A stretch of 64,000 bases of DNA from Escherichia phage vB_EcoM_DE7. Where the stretch lies: sequence record OL825705.1. One strand, written 5' to 3'. Of the stretch, positions 10,960 to 16,410 are shown in pieces. The notes below the pieces were generated by a model that had not been told where the DNA came from, did not search any database, and saw only the letters and a list, made by a program, of their open reading frames with translations. The translations under genes and the position numbers were made by a program. How positions within the stretch are numbered: position 1 is the first letter of the stretch; each line of letters begins with the position of its first letter.

Positions 10960-11036
10960 CTCTGTTTAGCTCAGCTTGGTAGAGCGTTCCGTTTGGGGCG
11001 GTAAGGCCGGAGGTTCAAGTCCTCCAACAGAGACCA
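10960..11036 (+). tRNA. tRNA-Pro (anticodon TGG)
   Basis: Cloverleaf by eye: C1-G72 acceptor, loop TT-TGG-GG with G37, T-arm GGAGG-TTCAAGT-CCTCC, CCA encoded. Confidence 0.6.
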
Positions 11037-11053
11037 AATTTAAAGGGGTTGCT

Positions 11054-11410
11054 ATGAGATTTTTAAAAGAATGCCCAGTTCATGGCTTAACTGAGCATAG
11101 CATTCATAAGAATGGCAACGCCGGTAATAGAGTAAATTGTCTAAAATGTTGTGCATTAAGGACAAAACTCAGAGAGGATGCCAATAGGGAGAAAGCATAT
11201 AAATTATATGGCGATAGTTGCAAAATTTGTGGCTATAATAAATGTAAAAATGCTTTAGAATGGCATCACCTTAACCCAAACGAAAAAGAGAATACACCAT
11301 CAAAACTTATGGGTGCATCTTGGGAAAAGGTTAAAAAAGAACTTGATAAATGCGTTTTACTATGTGCTAATTGCCATAGAGAGGTTCATAGTGGAATTGC
11401 AATGATTTAA
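11054..11410 (+). CDS. HNH homing endonuclease (about 118 aa)
   Basis: EWHHLNPNE...CANCHREVH motif; ATG at 11054 just 3' of tRNA-Pro. Confidence 0.7.
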   Translation: MRFLKECPVHGLTEHSIHKNGNAGNRVNCLKCCALRTKLREDANREKAYKLYGDSCKICGYNKCKNALEWHHLNPNEKENTPSKLMGASWEKVKKELDKCVLLCANCHREVHSGIAMI

Positions 11411-11411
11411 T

Positions 11412-11486
11412 GTCGTAGAAGGCAAATGGTTAGCCACCTGACCTTCAATCAGTTGCTCGCAGGTTCGAATCCTGTCTACGACACCA
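11412..11486 (+). tRNA. tRNA, isotype uncertain (best fold gives anticodon TTC, Glu, with atypical C33)
   Basis: Acceptor GTCGTAG/CTACGAC, T-arm GCAGG-TTCGAAT-CCTGT, CCA encoded; anticodon arm imperfect. Confidence 0.45.
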
Positions 11487-11577
11487 GTTTTGACAGAAGA
11501 CCAATTGCAGCAAACTTAATCTTATTCATCTGACACGAAATCGGACAAAGAAGAGATTTGGTCTGGTCATTAAGAAT

Positions 11578-11654
11578 TGCGGGTATAGAGAAAGGGCGTC
11601 TCACATGTCTCATTAGCATGGTATCGGCAGGTTCGACTCCTGCACCCGCCTCCA
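11578..11654 (+). tRNA. tRNA-Met-type (anticodon CAT)
   Basis: Anticodon stem CATGT/GCATG, loop CT-CAT-TA; T-arm GCAGG-TTCGACT-CCTGC. Confidence 0.5.
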
Positions 11655-11731
11655 ATTTTGCAGAAGACCGTATGCAGCAATAAACTACTTTTTGCGGATA
11701 AAAGAAAAAACACGGTCTGGCAATGTATTAA

Positions 11732-11808
11732 GGTTAGGAAGCACATAAGGTATGTGCGGTCGCCTGTTAAGCGAATGGCACAGGGTTCGAATCCCTGACT
11801 AACCGCCA
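11732..11808 (+). tRNA. tRNA-Asn (anticodon GTT)
   Basis: Loop CT-GTT-AA; T-arm CAGGG-TTCGAAT-CCCTG; CCA encoded. Confidence 0.65.
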
Positions 11809-11879
11809 AATTTAGGAGAGAAGCGATTGCTCACCGATTTGTAAGGTGCAAGTCCTTAGCCTGAATAGAATAATAAAAT

Positions 11880-11967
11880 GTGTCGTTATCCCGTAGATGG
11901 TAGCGGTGGGGACTGTAAATCCCTTGTCATTGAGACTCGGTAGGTTCGACTCCTACACGGCACACCA
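11880..11967 (+). tRNA. tRNA-Tyr (anticodon GTA), long variable arm
   Basis: Loop CT-GTA-AA; about 15-nt variable arm; T-arm GTAGG-TTCGACT-CCTAC. Confidence 0.6.
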
Positions 11968-11972
11968 ATAAA

Positions 11973-12050
11973 GGCTATGTAGTTTAATAGGGTTAAAATA
12001 CTCCCCTGTCACGGGAGATGATGTGAGTTCAAGTCTCATCGTAGCCGCCA
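11973..12050 (+). tRNA. tRNA-Asp (anticodon GTC)
   Basis: Perfect anticodon stem CTCCC/GGGAG, loop CT-GTC-AC; CCA encoded. Confidence 0.7.
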
Positions 12051-12252
12051 ATTTTGAGAGGGCTATTTAGCCCCTCCCTTAAAGAGTTCTTGCGAGTATT
12101 CTTTAAAGGAGCAGAAGACCAAATACAGCAAGTTACTTAAAATTTCAAGCCAATTCAATTTTGAAAAAATTTAAAACTTGGTCTGACTCAACAAATTTAC
12201 AGAAGACCGTTTACAGCAAAACTTAAACAATCTATTTCTCCGGTAAAGAAAA

Positions 12253-12310
12253 GGCGAAGGTTCGATTCCTTCACTCGGCAGATGTCGAGTTGGTCTAATG
12301 GTAGCACTTA
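12253..12310 (+). other. tRNA-like fragments in permuted order (T-arm plus 3' acceptor strand followed by 5' acceptor strand plus D-arm-like segment)
   Basis: GAAGG-TTCGATT-CCTTC-ACTCGGC then GTCGAGT-TGGTCTAATGGTAGCAC; the two acceptor strands are complementary; no intact cloverleaf. Confidence 0.35.
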
Positions 12311-12482
12311 AGATGATAAACAACGGTCTGGTAATTATCTTTGCAGTAGCTTATGTGGCTAATTATGTCGTCCCATGAGTGCCGATGAATTTCCTTAGCA
12401 TGATTCTAGATTAGCTTAATAGGAAATGACTCTACAGACCCTTTAGCAAGGTCTGCGTAGGTTACTGCAAAGGTAATTTAAT

Positions 12483-12558
12483 GGAAGTGTAGCAGAATGG
12501 TGATGCGGCAGACTTTTAATCTGACAGGCGATGGGTTCGAATCCCTCCACTTCTACCA
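12483..12558 (+). tRNA. tRNA-Lys (anticodon TTT)
   Basis: Acceptor GGAAGTG/CACTTCT, loop CT-TTT-AA, T-loop TTCGAAT. Confidence 0.55.
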
Positions 12559-15050: not shown

Positions 15051-15058
15051 AGATTTAA

Positions 15059-15134
15059 AGGGGATTAGTTTACAAGGTTAAAACCTCGGTCTTTGAAATC
15101 GAAGAAGTTGGTTCAATTCCAACATCCCCCGCCA
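15059..15134 (+). tRNA. tRNA-Gln (anticodon TTG)
   Basis: D-stem GTTT/AAAC, anticodon stem TCGGT/ATCGA, loop CT-TTG-AA, T-arm GTTGG-TTCAATT-CCAAC. Confidence 0.6.
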
Positions 15135-15136
15135 AT

Positions 15137-15215
15137 GCTCCATTACTCCAATTGGCAGAGAGGCCAGACTTAAAATCTGTGTTATGTATCGGTTCGAATC
15201 CGATATGGAGTACCA
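15137..15215 (+). tRNA. tRNA with Leu anticodon TAA but short (8-nt) variable region; Leu-like D-loop, A73
   Basis: Acceptor GCTCCAT/ATGGAGT, anticodon stem CAGA/TCTG, loop CT-TAA-AA, T-arm ATCGG-TTCGAAT-CCGAT. Confidence 0.5.
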
Positions 15216-15220
15216 AATTT

Positions 15221-15296
15221 AGCGGTATAGCATAACTGGCAATGCAGCAGTCTCTGAAGCTGTCTTATTAAGGTTCAAATCCTTATGCCGCTGCCA
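15221..15296 (+). tRNA. tRNA-Gln (anticodon CTG)
   Basis: D-stem GCAT/ATGC, loop CT-CTG-AA, T-arm TAAGG-TTCAAAT-CCTTA. Confidence 0.6.
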
Positions 15297-15327
15297 CTTC
15301 TAAGGATTCTTACGAGAGTCCTTAAAT

Positions 15328-15403
15328 GTGGCCTTATCATAAATGGCAATGACCCATGCTGTGAACATGGTCTATACGGGTTCAAATCCCGTAGGTCACC
15401 CCA
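15328..15403 (+). tRNA. tRNA-His (anticodon GTG)
   Basis: Perfect anticodon stem CCATG/CATGG, loop CT-GTG-AA, C73 discriminator, T-loop TTCAAAT. Confidence 0.7.
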
Positions 15404-15409
15404 ATTTAT

Positions 15410-15485
15410 AGTCCAAGTAGCTTATATGGTTAAAGCGCGTGTCTGAAAAACATGAGAAGAGGGTTCAAATCCCACTGGACTACCA
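15410..15485 (+). tRNA. tRNA-Phe (anticodon GAA)
   Basis: Anticodon stem CGTGT/ACATG, loop CT-GAA-AA, T-loop TTCAAAT. Confidence 0.6.
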
Positions 15486-15501
15486 ATTTCAAAGGTGCTT
15501 A

Positions 15502-16236
15502 ATGAAAGAGATGACAGAACAAGGTAAGGAGATTTTTAATCTCTTAAAAACCGGTAGAGGGTTTTCTAATCCCCTTATTACTGGTGCAGCAGTTCTCGGT
15601 GGAACCGTAGCTGCCTCTACATCACTTGTAAGCTCTATTAGCTCTGTAACAGACCCTACAATAAAGGATAAGCTTATTGCTGCTGGACTTACGACAGTTC
15701 TACTTAGCAGCTTTACAACGAGTCTGACAAGCACTACATCAACCACTAAAACACTGACAGATTACGGTCAAAAGTCCATTGATGAGTTTTCATCACGTAT
15801 GCAGGTAGCAAAAGGATATTCTAATGCTATGGGTGCAGCAGGAGAGCAAGTCGGTTGTACACCTTTTAGTGGTATTATGGGTGTTGCTACAGAATATGGT
15901 CAAAAAGCTATTGACACAATTAACAGTGCACTAGATAGTGTTAACGGTGTATTAAGTGACTTACAAGATGCTATTGACGAAGGTCTTGATACTATTTCTG
16001 ATTTAGCTAACCAAGCTGTTAGCAAGATTAATGAAGGTATCTCGAAGATTACAGCTTATGCAGACGAAGTTGTGCAGATGATTGAAGAAGAAGCTGCCCT
16101 TATTGCAGAGTACCTTAAAACGAATATCAATGGGTTCTTAGCAGGTATCTTACCAGACTGGTTTGATGATGCTTGTAAAACTGGTGTAATTGATACTATT
16201 GCAACACCAGAAATGAAGAACGCATTACAGAAATAA
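15502..16236 (+). CDS. hypothetical Ser/Thr-rich protein (about 244 aa) within tRNA array
   Basis: ATG at 15502 with AAAGG RBS just 3' of tRNA-Phe; the longer track ORF would overlap the tRNA. Confidence 0.55.
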   Translation: MKEMTEQGKEIFNLLKTGRGFSNPLITGAAVLGGTVAASTSLVSSISSVTDPTIKDKLIAAGLTTVLLSSFTTSLTSTTSTTKTLTDYGQKSIDEFSSRMQVAKGYSNAMGAAGEQVGCTPFSGIMGVATEYGQKAIDTINSALDSVNGVLSDLQDAIDEGLDTISDLANQAVSKINEGISKITAYADEVVQMIEEEAALIAEYLKTNINGFLAGILPDWFDDACKTGVIDTIATPEMKNALQK

Positions 16237-16237
16237 T

Positions 16238-16329
16238 GGAAGATTAACCCTAAAAGGTAAGGGAGCAGTTTGCTAAACTGCCAGTAGCTGAGAAATCGGT
16301 GTACCAGTTCAAGTCTGGTATCTTCCTCC
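16238..16329 (+). tRNA. tRNA-Ser (anticodon GCT), long variable arm
   Basis: Acceptor GGAAGAT/ATCTTCC, perfect anticodon stem GCAGT/ACTGC, loop TT-GCT-AA, long variable arm. Confidence 0.6.
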
Positions 16330-16334
16330 AATTT

Positions 16335-16410
16335 GAATCCGTGACAGAAATGGCTATGTACCTGTCTGCAAAACAGGTTTATAAGGGTTCGAGTCCCTTC
16401 GGATTCTCCA
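16335..16410 (+). tRNA. tRNA-Cys (anticodon GCA)
   Basis: Perfect acceptor GAATCCG/CGGATTC, anticodon stem CCTGT/ACAGG, loop CT-GCA-AA, T-arm AAGGG-TTCGAGT-CCCTT. Confidence 0.65.

Follow-up and report, generated by a model that had tools for sequence, protein, structure and literature searches.

The tRNA region of phage T4 contains the stable RNAs C and D together with the SegB endonuclease gene, and that of phage T5 contains HNH endonuclease genes. In bacteria, the genes for YrlA RNAs and Ro60 share a strand and lie no more than 4 kb apart (PMC4201824). The Ro60 of Thermus phage phiLo binds two phage-encoded Y-like RNAs, Yrl1 and Yrl2 (PMC12135203). Bas63 gp130, a Ro60-like protein encoded directly upstream of tRNA genes, counters the 'ppl' defence and, when supplied alone from a plasmid or T7, restores growth on ppl (PMC11482910). 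Therefore, at least the anti-ppl activity needs no phage RNAs. The Class I RNAs of dictyostelids (RF01414) have been reported to be unique to Dictyostelia and absent elsewhere (Kjellin et al. 2021, PMC7919456).

The window, which is the whole 64 kb stretch of DNA analyzed here, is from a Felixounavirus (Felix O1-like) and carries the well-known Felix O1-type tRNA array, in which an HNH gene and other ORFs lie between the tRNA genes. Nothing in the array, HNH, 35-codon ORF, DUF7338 and DUF7217 content goes beyond what is known or ordinary. What is new are four unannotated, Y-RNA-like small RNA units in the spacers at 11495-12333. With a probability of about 0.68, the locus is a Felix O1-type array with a mobile HNH gene and accessory ORFs, in which the four embedded RNAs are Y-RNA-like partners of a DUF2828 Ro60-like protein. 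The genes and signals of the locus are as follows.

9379-10794, + strand: Ro60-like protein gene, directly upstream of the array (Pfam DUF2828 and DUF7788; phrog_850 'RNA-binding protein')
10813-10841, + strand: second promoter-like site (consensus scan)
10904-10933, + strand: promoter-like site before the array, TTGACA-18-TAAAGT with TG (consensus scan)
10960-11036, + strand: tRNA-Pro(UGG), which opens the array (ARAGORN; Rfam 57.7 bits)
11054-11410, + strand: free-standing HNH homing-endonuclease gene (Pfam HNH; phrog_2255)
11412-11486, + strand: tRNA-Glu(UUC) (Rfam tRNA 55.4 bits at 11412-11483/86; missed by ARAGORN)
11578-11654, + strand: tRNA-Met(CAU), between units A and B (ARAGORN; 1-72 mismatch)
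11732-12050, + strand: tRNA-Asn, tRNA-Tyr, tRNA-Asp (ARAGORN; Rfam)
12483-12717, + strand: tRNA-Lys(UUU), tRNA-Met(CAU), tRNA-Ile(GAU) (ARAGORN; Rfam)
12733-12761, + strand: internal promoter-like site, 11/12 consensus positions (consensus scan)
13287-14283, + strand: tRNA-Ser(UGA), Leu(UAG), Lys(CUU), Ala, Gly, Thr, Val, Leu(CAA) (ARAGORN; Rfam; fold)
14300-14407, + strand: 35-codon accessory ORF, phrog_13848 (PHROG E 9e-18; overlaps tRNA-Arg by 10 nt)
14398-14473, + strand: tRNA-Arg(ACG) (ARAGORN; Rfam)
14493-15050, + strand: DUF7338 membrane-anchored protein, function unknown (Pfam 208 bits)
15059-15485, + strand: tRNA-Gln(UUG), Leu(UAA), Gln(CUG), His, Phe (ARAGORN; Rfam)
15502-16236, + strand: DUF7217 protein (Pfam 296 bits)
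16238-16410, + strand: tRNA-Ser(GCU), tRNA-Cys(GCA), which close the array (ARAGORN; Rfam)
16573-16598, + strand: terminator-like hairpin and T run, downstream of the array (consensus scan)

The gene at 9379-10794 is ORF42 of FelixO1 and, judged by its position and description, corresponds to gp130 of the related phage Bas63. Its product is predicted to fold as a Ro60/TROVE-like HEAT ring plus vWA. The AF2 model has a pLDDT of 87.6, and each of the 12 best Foldseek matches in the PDB is a full-length Ro60/TROVE structure (E 3.5e-8 to 2e-6, TM 0.48-0.65), with the phiLo Ro60 (9l5y, 9kop) among the best. The residues D279, S281 and S283 (DxSxS) are invariant in an alignment of 44 sequences. Comparison of the DUF2828 protein with solved Ro60 structures gave no sequence-level match. 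The gene lies outside the coordinates of the preliminary description, which missed it as well as the four units at 11495-12333.

The array spans 10960-16410 with every tRNA on the + strand. ARAGORN called 24 tRNAs, and 22 tRNAs score above the gathering threshold of the Rfam tRNA model, namely 21 of the ARAGORN calls and tRNA-Glu. The preliminary description placed the array correctly and counted about 27 tRNA-like genes; the count is revised to 25 credible tRNAs (24 from ARAGORN and Glu from Rfam), covering 19 amino acids with Trp absent, and two non-canonical elements. Rejection of most of the cloverleaves by covariance-model scoring had been named as the refuting result, and the Rfam passes do not reject the array. 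Three calls were made by ARAGORN only. Tyr 11880 and Ser(UGA) 13287 are long-arm types that match the Rfam Sec model; Met(CAU) 11578 is atypical and scores poorly in Rfam, with no more than 15.9 bits for the Sec model. The anticodon loop of tRNA-Glu(UUC) reads CCUUCAA in the sequence, with C at position 33, and the FelixO1 annotation also has a tRNA-Glu. The spacers within 13287-14283 are structured in folding, and 13538-13624 forms a long hairpin.

The promoter-like sites are consensus matches only, with a total count not above the shuffled expectation, and have the extended motif TTAAAAAG..TTGACA (repeat family D16) in common. An array promoter had been proposed at 12734, where the site 12733-12761 fits the consensus at 11 of 12 positions.

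The HNH gene reported earlier at 11054-11410 was confirmed by Pfam HNH (23 bits, cut-off 21.4) and phrog_2255 (E 2.5e-29). It is inserted exactly between tRNA-Pro and tRNA-Glu, a site that also holds an HNH gene in phage nataliec. FelixO1 has a Pro-Glu gap of 7 nt without an HNH gene, and carries three HNH genes at other positions of the array, where the window's spacers are tight. Since different spacers are occupied in different relatives, mobility explains the HNH gene in the array. The 35-codon ORF is real and does overlap tRNA-Arg, although its previous coordinates (14299-14406) were one base off. It is missing from four of six Felixounavirus loci compared (L001, L003, L006, L130), where the spacer is 5 nt, and is found in the window and FelixO1; Moogle has a longer spacer of 178 nt with a different annotated ORF at this site. 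Between the window and FelixO1 the ORF has 1, 1 and 4 substitutions at codon positions 1, 2 and 3. Both this ORF and DUF7338 are accessory genes, the ORF being an accessory indel. The preliminary description called the embedded genes unexplained, which no longer applies to the HNH gene.

The membrane protein predicted at 14493-15050 is DUF7338 and has an N-terminal membrane helix (residues 2-33). Its AF2 model (pLDDT 90.8) found no match in a PDB fold search. DUF7338 occurs in 565 phage records, T4-like phages included, nearly all annotated 'hypothetical protein'; the occasional label 'holin' is unsupported. The DUF7217 gene has the same position in the distant relatives L205 and L206. It probably encodes a virion protein; in Ackermannviridae, homologues carry the annotation 'unknown structural protein' or 'putative structural protein'.

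The locus could be an ordinary tRNA array only, which compensates for codon usage or host tRNA loss and has passenger ORFs and meaningless spacers. The array and its ORFs have long been known in Felix O1 and Bas63 can do without most of its tRNAs in laboratory hosts (PMC11482910); however, this explanation is quite unlikely, since it leaves a conserved, covarying, gene-linked motif unaccounted for. The interleaving of tRNAs with the HNH gene and ORFs was described correctly before, but the non-tRNA stretches are not mere spacers, as they contain four conserved units.

11495-11568, + strand: unit A, short type (repeat family D12; descriptor; covariance model R1 27.3 bits, E 1.4e-3)
11662-11722, + strand: unit B, short type (D12; descriptor; R1 27.3 bits)
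12113-12188, + strand: unit C, short type (D12; descriptor; R1 30.7 bits, E 2.4e-4, top in the window)
12201-12333, + strand: unit D, YrlA-like (RNAalifold; covariance model R2)

From 5' to 3', each unit consists of AAG, the first strand of a covarying stem, N3-5, CAGCAA, an insert that varies, the second stem strand and CUG. Unit A is AAG-ACCAA-UUG-CAGCAA ... UUGGUC-UGG. Unit B is AAG-ACCGU-AUG-CAGCAA ... ACGGUC-UGG and also matches Rfam Dicty_Class_I_RNA over the full model length with 18 bits. The sequence AGAAGACC-N5-CAGCA has four copies in the window versus 0.06 expected, and all four have the complementary strand downstream, with compensatory differences (accaa/ttggt, accgt/acggt). Unit D has a closing stem (GACCGUU/AACGGUC), a V hairpin and a tRNA-like domain, as in bacterial YrlA Y RNAs, consisting of a D arm, a T arm (GAAGG-UUCGAUU-CCUUC) and a closed acceptor stem (CUCGGC-AGAU-GUCGAG). 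RNAalifold on 6 orthologues gives 31 pairs in unit D, 13 with compensatory changes. The model R2, which was made from 8 distant phage elements, matches unit D in full (51.6 bits, E 2.2e-8), and its next match is at 21 bits. The Rfam YrlA and Y_RNA models have no match at the window's units, the published Ro60-contact motifs GNCGAAN0-1G and GGUCCGA are absent from them, and their single-sequence folding energies are unexceptional (z -0.9 to -1.7). The number of units varies; Moogle is without unit A and L205 without unit D.

Every Felix-like genome examined keeps the frame while the interiors differ, and the distant relatives L205, L206 and L008 (63%, 56% and 48% protein identity) keep it with different stems. 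The motif covaries, is recovered by models from distant phages and is tightly linked to Ro-like genes on the same strand in a very diverse range of phages, with tRNAs present or not. In 82 loci the descriptor matches the gene strand 87 times and the opposite strand 6 times. The sequence-only head motif occurs 101 times on the gene strand versus 21 on the other, or 31 versus 0 when the stem and CUG are added; as a control, 2 of 73 chance heads from unrelated contigs are closed. Of 66 matches, 43 are within 600 nt of a Ro-like gene, near which the density is 0.47-0.52 per kb, with other bins at most about 0.1 per kb and mostly zero. In the stems 96% of cells are paired versus 34-49% with partners slid, and 47 cells have double changes versus 13 in shuffles; these covariation counts are partly circular because pairing was a criterion in choosing both the descriptor and the R1 training set, and the independent evidence is strand, position and the cross-family controls.

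The short-unit model R1 was trained on distant phages without Felix-like sequences, and over the 64 kb its top three matches are units C, B and A. Of 85 Ro-like loci, 65 have R1 matches. The 101 matches all lie on the + (gene) strand; they include the 22 training sequences and some near-duplicate loci. R1 has 0 matches on 73 unrelated viral contigs (686 kb). The motif follows the Ro-like gene also in tRNA-less loci (for example L015, L043, L045, L067). In L011, L057 and Enterococcus, Klebsiella, Mycobacterium and Bacillus phages, elements of the same type have significant sub-threshold matches to Rfam YrlA, with 29-45 bits versus a gathering score of 69; none of the window's units reaches a YrlA score.

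The array also contains other structured elements.

12333-12480, + strand: very stable structured element (RNAfold -53.8 kcal/mol, z -5.9)
12964-13047, + strand: non-canonical tRNA-Arg(UCU)-like element (alignment; 23 bits versus the Sec model)
13192-13275, + strand: conserved tRNA-Trp-like element (fold and conservation)

The element at 12333-12480 has a 23-bp closing stem and the inner hairpin loop CUUUAGCAA. It is covered in only 59 of 251 records, i.e. in part of the relatives, and is kin to a motif-closed unit in L206, with related sequences in L205 and L206. Neither of the tRNA-like elements is called by ARAGORN or passes the Rfam tRNA model. The first aligns with tRNA-Arg(UCU), which is intact in Sf19, Moogle, L206 and L008; in the window's element the acceptor stem, T arm and CUUCUAA loop are kept and the normal D arm is replaced. 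The second folds with an acceptor stem, a T arm and a loop with CCA, and is conserved in L205, L206 and L008 with a covarying anticodon-like stem. A T-arm-like piece is also found at 11843-11857.

Degenerate pieces such as 12964-13047 and 11843-11857, HNH genes mobile among spacers and a varying unit number would fit units that are decayed tRNA genes or selfish repeats (targets of recombination or homing endonucleases) with no function of their own. This would predict neutral loss of the frame or occurrence on both strands, and the opposite is seen. The frame is kept and the stems covary from 63-48% down to 28-35% protein identity (Gram-positive and mycobacterial phages), the strand preference is 101 to 0, the linkage is to the Ro-like gene rather than to HNH genes or tRNAs, and unrelated phage contigs have no match. 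Therefore, decay or selfishness is very improbable.

The motif hairpins may instead be cis-acting, either as operators of the Ro-like protein (on its own mRNA or the array transcript) or as RNase punctuation or processing sites in the tRNA precursor. A minimal motif of 34-43 nt does occur 44-56 nt before the Ro-like start codon in L009, L014, L015, L016, L021, L039 and L044, the window units abut tRNA ends, and stable hairpins are present in other spacers too. However, the window has no motif copy before the Ro-like gene, and its units are 0.7-1.5 kb downstream, past tRNAs and the HNH gene. A cis role is also at odds with 3-5 copies of unrelated interior, with tracking of the Ro-like gene even in tRNA-less loci, and with the complete tRNA-like domain of unit D, which a processing signal would not need. 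It is thus unlikely that the hairpins act in cis.

The four units are most likely cognate partners of the 9379-10794 protein, with binding and function proposed from sequence. The 25 tRNAs would be transcribed rightward from the sigma-70-like promoters, in an array that has gained a mobile HNH gene and a few accessory ORFs. The stretch 11495-12333 would yield three short RNAs of ~56-71 nt and one of ~130 nt with the tRNA-like domain. Host tRNA-processing enzymes may excise them from the polycistronic tRNA precursor, with RNase P cutting at the 5' end of the next tRNA, and RNase E and exonucleases acting after the previous CCA. The end-joining helix varies in sequence with pairing kept, next to the near-invariant single-stranded signatures AAG, (N3-5)CAGCAA and CUG. 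This frame is the proposed protein-binding site and the interior is free to vary. The units may bind the Ro-like ring, and the resulting particle could act in RNA surveillance or counter-defence during infection.

As in T4 and T5, free-standing homing-endonuclease genes and small stable RNAs other than tRNAs lie among the phage tRNA genes. To our knowledge, the T4 and T5 tRNA clusters have no Ro60-like gene or AAG/CAGCAA/CUG frame. The phiLo RNAs, unlike the window's, were chosen by a CGAA motif and are upstream of the gene with no tRNA array; their binding and PNPase recruitment are demonstrated (PMC12135203), whereas binding of the window's units is proposed. Both phages encode a Ro60-fold protein and at least two adjacent Y-like RNAs.

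The unit design also matches the Dictyostelium Class I RNAs. These, unlike the phage units, come from eukaryotic nuclear genes, which number in the tens and have a DUSE promoter of their own; the RRM protein Rnp1A is known to bind them directly. Both kinds are ~60 nt, with an AAG start with an invariant G, a covarying end-joining stem of ~6 bp, ...ACAGCAA directly following the 5' strand, an interior that varies and a CUG(U) end whose C pairs with the 5' G. The window-derived descriptor fits 39 of 75 Class I RNAs, 2 Class I RNAs have T-arm-like inserts, and the Rfam Class I model matches phage units in full length at 18-29 bits, below its gathering score of 41.5.

The YrlA comparison covered Salmonella, Mycobacterium and mycobacteriophages (RF02553; Chen et al. 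2014, PMC4201824). Unlike in those systems, the window's protein is DUF2828 and not a Pfam-TROVE Ro60, AAG...CAGCAA...CUG replaces GNCGAAN0-1G, and the units are embedded among tRNA genes. As with YrlA and Ro60/Rsr, the phage units are on the same strand as a Ro60-fold gene and no more than a few kb from it, and a helix joins their 5' and 3' ends. The stem-loop order of unit D (V, T, closed-acceptor, D) is that of YrlA and, as in YrlA/YrlB loci, there are several RNAs per locus, the shorter ones without the tRNA-like domain.

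The spacers of the tRNA array contain four predicted Y-RNA-like elements, here called units A to D:

11495-11568, + strand, unit A
11662-11722, + strand, unit B
12113-12188, + strand, unit C
12201-12333, + strand, unit D

Each unit has a frame of AAG, a covarying stem, N3-5, CAGCAA, a variable insert, the complementary strand and CUG. The pattern AGAAGACC-N5-CAGCA has four copies in the window, all within 11495-12218, against 0.06 expected. The complement of the variable part occurs 40-115 nt downstream of every copy and is followed by CUGG or CUGA; the 3' end of unit C is CUGA, not CUGG. 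The variable parts differ in a compensatory way, with accaa/ttggt in two units and accgt(t)/(a)acggt in the other two. All the Felix-like genomes examined share an identical frame around interiors that vary, in some cases with no similarity at all. Two metagenome relatives, L206 and L008, have the frame with other stems (GUAUC/GAUAC, GACUA/UAGUC, GACUCU/AGAGUC, GUGUC/GACAC, GAGCAC/GUGCUC, GAGCAG/CUGCUC and GGACAC/GUGUCC).

Units A-C are 56-71 nt long from AAG to CUG. For unit D, the RNAalifold consensus of 6 orthologues has a closing stem followed by a small hairpin, then a T arm (loop UUCGAUU), then a closed "acceptor" stem and lastly a D arm. Compensatory changes occur in 13 of its 31 pairs, mostly within the closed acceptor stem. 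The window copy of unit D contains GGUCUAAUGG where all other Felix-like copies have GGUGUAAUGG, and one D-stem pair is broken. Single-sequence folding of units A-D is not significantly stable, so thermodynamics alone would have missed them. A helix enclosing a tRNA (GGUCUGG, tRNA, CAGAAGACC) was also considered and rejected, since the compensatory differences match each head to the first strand downstream of it and not to the strand that precedes it.

The gene just upstream of the array (9379-10794, + strand) encodes a 471 aa protein with the Pfam domains DUF2828 and DUF7788. Searches of PDB sequences with phmmer and a profile found no Ro60 and no solved structure, and the Pfam TROVE domain is absent. 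An AlphaFold model (AF2) was built from an alignment of 44 homologues with a pLDDT of 87.6. In a Foldseek search of the PDB the best 12 matches are all full-length Ro60/TROVE chains (E 3.5e-8 to 2e-6), including Xenopus Ro60, Deinococcus Rsr and the Ro60 of Thermus phage phiLo, followed by vWA domains only. The modelled protein thus has the predicted Ro60/TROVE architecture, a ring of HEAT-like repeats and then a vWA domain. The link to Ro60 comes solely from the fold search. The vWA domain contains a MIDAS-type DxSxS in which D279, S281 and S283 are invariant among the 44 homologues. The family is large, with 709 GenBank phage records, 3258 database proteins and thousands of metagenomic homologues, and the gene is often found beside tRNA arrays in phages of Listeria, Enterococcus, Bacillus, Campylobacter and Klebsiella, among others. 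DUF2828 proteins are also present in mimivirus-like sequences. Mentions of DUF2828 in the literature come from plant and tardigrade studies, which suggests that the family may also occur in eukaryotes.

The motif is associated with this gene well beyond the Felix-like phages. A simple descriptor applied to 82 gene-carrying loci gave 87 matches on the gene strand vs 6 on the opposite strand. The head sequence alone, with no pairing required, gave 101 vs 21, and requiring the stem and CUG left 31 vs 0. In 75 distant loci, 43 of the 66 matches lie within 600 nt of the gene (about 0.5 per kb); the density in the other distance bins is at most about 0.1 per kb and zero in most. The motif adjoins the Ro-like gene also in loci without any tRNA. 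The exact 15-base head pattern gave mostly chance single matches in IMG/VR, and these then served as a negative control. In unrelated viral contigs, chance heads were closed in only 2 of 73 cases.

Two covariance models were made from distant phages only. The first, R1, was trained on 22 short units, and 96% of the cells of its stem are paired, compared to 34-49% when the partners are slid. In an unfiltered R1 run on the entire window, the top matches were units C, B and A (30.7, 27.3 and 27.3 bits) and the next match scored 17 bits. In 85 Ro-like loci (970 kb), R1 at E<=1 resulted in 101 matches in 65 loci, all on the gene strand; these include the training sequences and some near-duplicate loci, and about 40 loci are new. 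The positive loci include phages of Listeria, Staphylococcus, Enterococcus, Bacillus, Mycobacterium, Campylobacter and Klebsiella. R1 had no matches in 73 unrelated viral contigs (686 kb). The second model, R2, was trained on eight long units, and its consensus combines a closing stem and a T arm with a closed acceptor stem and a D arm; compensatory changes support 17 of the 22 pairs. R2 matches unit D over the full model length (51.6 bits, E 2.2e-8), with the next match in the window at 21 bits.

The relatives also have variants of the motif. In seven loci (L009, L014, L015, L016, L021, L039 and L044), the 5' leader of the Ro-like gene contains a minimal 34-43-nt motif without an insert, at a distance of about 44-56 nt from the start codon (L044: 99 nt). 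This position suggests autoregulation; the window has no minimal copy ahead of its Ro-like gene. Staphylococcus phage S-CoN_Ph1 (L209, 4481-4695) has three tandem short units directly after the gene. In Gram-positive and mycobacterial phages, the 3' frame is CUUG or CCAG in place of CUG. One locus has the opposite topology (L061, 5733-5834), in which the motif helix takes the place of the acceptor stem of an otherwise complete tRNA-like body. Other structured RNAs were found in some of these loci. Listeria phage LMSP-25 (L208) has a ROOL RNA (RF03087) at 1428-1979 with 88.5 bits and E 1.8e-16, just below the gathering score. It is located among tRNAs 1 kb upstream of the DUF2828 gene, and an RtcB-type "tRNA-splicing ligase" gene occurs 1.3 kb downstream. 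A distant phage contig (L057) has two sub-threshold group I intron matches downstream of a 20-tRNA array (12103-12310, 36.7 bits; 11471-11548, 24.5 bits).

The array itself belongs to a 5.6-kb region which matches 314 phage records at 80-99% identity, nearly all of them Felix O1-like Escherichia, Salmonella and Shigella phages; among the annotated records, phages nataliec and FelixO1 match best. The gene order is a DUF5681 gene, the "RNA-binding protein" (the Ro-like gene), the tRNA array, a DUF7217 gene and terminase. This order is identical in the metagenome relatives L205, L206 and L008, with 63%, 56% and 48% identity in the RNA-binding protein. The preliminary description placed about 27 tRNA-like genes at 10960-16410. 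ARAGORN predicts 24 tRNAs there, all on the + strand, and the array survives covariance-model scoring, with 22 tRNAs above the Rfam RF00005 gathering score. These 22 consist of 21 ARAGORN calls and a tRNA-Glu (11412-11483) which is annotated in FelixO1 and missed by ARAGORN; the tRNAs for Tyr, Ser(UGA) and Met(CAU) at 11578 are called by ARAGORN only. The union is 25 credible tRNAs for 19 amino acids. The higher count results from two further tRNA-like elements that pass neither tool:

12964-13047, + strand, tRNA-Arg(UCU)-like element with the acceptor stem, T arm and CUUCUAA loop kept and the D arm replaced
13192-13275, + strand, conserved Trp-like element with an acceptor stem, a T arm and a covarying anticodon-like stem

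The tRNA-Arg(UCU) is intact in phages Moogle and Sf19 and in L206 and L008; in the window and L205 it has lost the D arm and gained a 23-nt extra arm. The Trp-like element is conserved in the window, L205, L206 and L008 and is called by no tool. Its loop contains CCA and has 7 nt with a closing C-A mismatch (or 9 nt), and the element would supply the sole amino acid absent from the array.

Two of the tRNAs are unusual. The tRNA-Glu(UUC) at 11412-11486 has the anticodon loop CCUUCAA, with C rather than the near-universal U at position 33, and L205 has an identical loop. This C33 may be linked to the anticodon-nuclease evasion reported for other phage tRNAs. The tRNA-Met(CAU) between units A and B (11578-11654) has a U1-C72 mismatch and a very low Rfam score (15.9 bits against the Sec model). 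Citrobacter phage Moogle lacks both the counterpart of this tRNA and unit A. Two other stable folds occur in the array. The element at 12333-12480 is exceptionally stable (-53.8 kcal/mol, z -5.9); a duplex of 23 bp closes it, and its inner hairpin has the loop CUUUAGCAA. It is found in only about 59 of 251 relatives. L205 and L206 also have the inner hairpin, with covariation in its stem, and the homologous element of L206 is closed by the AAG/CAGCA/CUG frame. The Thr-Val spacer (14035-14129, z -2.9) contains GAAGACCGUAACAA, which is head-like without CAGCAA and may be a decayed unit.

An own promoter of the array had been proposed at 12734. A strong sigma-70-like site is present at 12733-12761, but the count of such sites is not above chance. 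Further sites occur at 10813 and 10904, and one at 9310 precedes the upstream gene. Promoter-like sites share an extended motif, TTAAAAAG-N3-4-TTGACA, with copies at 10801-10819, 10892-10910 and 12721-12739; it probably marks the early-promoter family of the phage.

Pfam and PHROG place HNH, DUF7338 and DUF7217 genes where the preliminary description had an HNH gene (11054-11410), a membrane-protein gene (14493-15050) and a Ser/Thr-rich protein gene (15502-16236). The HNH gene scores above the Pfam HNH cut-off and belongs to phrog_2255. In FelixO1, 7 nt separate the tRNA-Pro from the tRNA-Glu, and HNH genes occupy three spacers which are 2-7 nt long in the window. The insertion sites in the window and nataliec differ from those in FelixO1, and L205, L206 and L008 have HNH genes in other places again. 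The HNH gene is mobile, as is usual for free-standing homing-endonuclease genes. The 35-codon ORF is present, with its coordinates at 14300-14407 instead of 14299-14406, and belongs to a PHROG family. Among six Felixounavirus loci it occurs in the window and FelixO1, with few substitutions between the two, mostly in third codon positions. The other four loci (L001, L003, L006 and L130) have a 5-nt spacer instead, and the spacer of Moogle is longer, at 178 nt, and contains another annotated ORF. The 35-codon ORF is an accessory gene.

DUF7338 is common to many T4-like phages and has a long helix at its N terminus and a domain that was modelled with confidence (AF2 pLDDT 90.8); a fold search of this model against the PDB gave no match among solved structures. 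The label holin appears for it in a few records only and is unsupported. The position of DUF7217 before tRNA-Ser/Cys and the terminase gene is kept in distant relatives, and the best interpretation is that the late module starts with this gene. Ackermannviridae homologues carry structural-protein annotations; such annotation-level information hints at a structural role. An NCBIfam scan of the proteins gave no match except two ZorA matches for DUF7217, far below the cut-off. The array, the HNH gene and the ORFs are known or ordinary.

The arrangement of the units suggests how they could be produced. The promoters at 10813 and 10904 would drive a polycistronic transcript in the order Pro, HNH, Glu, unit A, Met, unit B, Asn, Tyr, Asp, unit C, unit D and the rest of the array. 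The start of each unit is a few bases downstream of a tRNA CCA or of another structured element, and its end is likewise a few bases short of the following one. Since the unit ends are so close to these boundaries, the host enzymes that mature tRNAs would also free the units. By analogy with the conserved Y RNA helix, the Ro-like ring may bind to the closing helix with AAG, CAGCAA and CUG. Like YrlA, the units might use their variable interior (in unit D with the tRNA-like domain) to recruit or mimic further factors. Biologically, a role in RNA surveillance or in counter-defence may be considered.

The frame closely resembles the Class I RNAs of dictyostelids, which have been stated to be unique to Dictyostelia (PMC7919456). 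These RNAs are about 60 nt long, start with AAG with an invariant G, have a 6-bp covarying stem joining the ends, contain the 11-nt motif CCUUACAGCAA right after the 5' strand and before a variable interior, and end in CUGU with the C paired to the 5' G (PMC7919456). Units A-C have the AAG with the invariant G, the short covarying end stem, the CUG end with its C paired to the 5' G, and the length of about 60 nt. In the window units CAGCAA is invariant and is preceded by UUG, AUG, AUA or UUA, and the units of distant phages often have the exact UUACAGCAA. A descriptor derived from the window fits 39 of 75 Class I RNAs in the supplement of PMC7919456, with CUG always at the very 3' end. The Rfam Class I model (RF01414) gave 18 bits on unit B and 23.4-28.8 bits (full model, + strand) on five R1 matches in four loci, all below its gathering score of 41.5 bits. 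The phage units also differ in their bacterial-virus context and have no DUSE, the promoter located about 60 nt upstream of Class I RNAs. Two Class I RNAs in the same supplement, asu_can_20 (CCUAGGUUCGAUCCCUAG and then a hairpin) and ppa_can_99 (UUGGUUCGAAUCCGAU), have T-arm-like inserts, a parallel to the tRNA-like inserts in the phages.

The likeness in design is an observed result; common descent or a common protein partner is hypothetical. A broader reading is that the phage and dictyostelid frame RNAs are one class, the cognate "Y RNAs" of the DUF2828 branch of Ro60-like proteins, which would make the Class I RNAs partners of a Ro-like protein. This is a tentative proposal, with a probability of roughly three in ten. 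The four units, their association with the Ro60-like gene in phages of great diversity and the identity of design with Class I RNAs are well supported computationally. The literature searched has no description of the units, the gene link, the AAG/CAGCAA/CUG frame or the Class I likeness. It also has no paper linking DUF2828 or TROVE to Dictyostelium, and DDB_G0281243 is found in one paper only, with no domain information.

If the one-class reading is true, DDB_G0281243, an uncharacterised pull-down protein, would be a candidate partner of the Class I RNAs, and these 20-year-old orphans were possibly acquired from a phage or giant-virus module or have a common origin with it. Other consequences would follow if the proposed pairing of the units with the Ro-like protein holds. 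A "hypothetical / RNA-binding" phage family would become a defined RNA-protein module with a searchable RNA signature. Phage tRNA-array "spacers" could conceal functional RNAs, which is relevant to phage engineering and annotation. The match with the Class I RNAs would provide a directly testable hypothesis for an abundant and developmentally important eukaryotic class, and would suggest a second, undescribed Ro/Y-like system across viruses and eukaryotes.

Among the known Y RNAs, YrlA is encoded within about 4 kb of a Ro60 gene on one strand. The units at 11495-12333 and the gene ending at 10794 are likewise close together and both on the + strand. A helix of the 5' and 3' ends is also shared, with compensatory stems within the window and across phages. 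The YrlA tRNA-like domain (V, T, closed acceptor stem and D in order) is found in unit D only, with the layout described for bacterial YrlA RNAs (PMC4201824); units A-C are without it, like YrlB. The L061 unit, with its D, anticodon and T arms, recalls Deinococcus Yrn1, not YrlA. The YrlA motif GNCGAAN0-1G near the 5' end is absent, and the phage units have AAG-stem-N3-5-CAGCAA. The Rfam YrlA (RF02553) and Y_RNA models have no match in the window, including unit D, even at E<=10. The YrlA model does give significant scores of 29.6-44.9 bits, below its gathering score of 69, exactly at the long units of relatives (L011, L057 and Enterococcus, Klebsiella, Mycobacterium and Bacillus phages).

Chen et al. 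(2014) reported YrlA beside TROVE-annotated Ro60 genes in 254 bacterial species and 22 phages (PMC4201824), a set in which DUF2828 proteins would not have been included. The Ro60 of a Thermus phage binds two adjacent Y-like RNAs and recruits host PNPase (PMC12135203). A 2024 preprint describes gp130 of Bas63 as Ro60-like by structure and directly upstream of tRNA genes (PMC11482910); by taxonomy, JohannRWettstein (Bas63) is a Felixounavirus. This protein acts against the "ppl" defence system, and still does so when it is transferred alone to T7 (PMC11482910), so the Ro-like protein is able to act without phage RNAs in at least one setting. If the proposed pairing of the units with the protein holds, the RNAs guessed at in the Bas63 work would be the spacers, not the annotated tRNAs.
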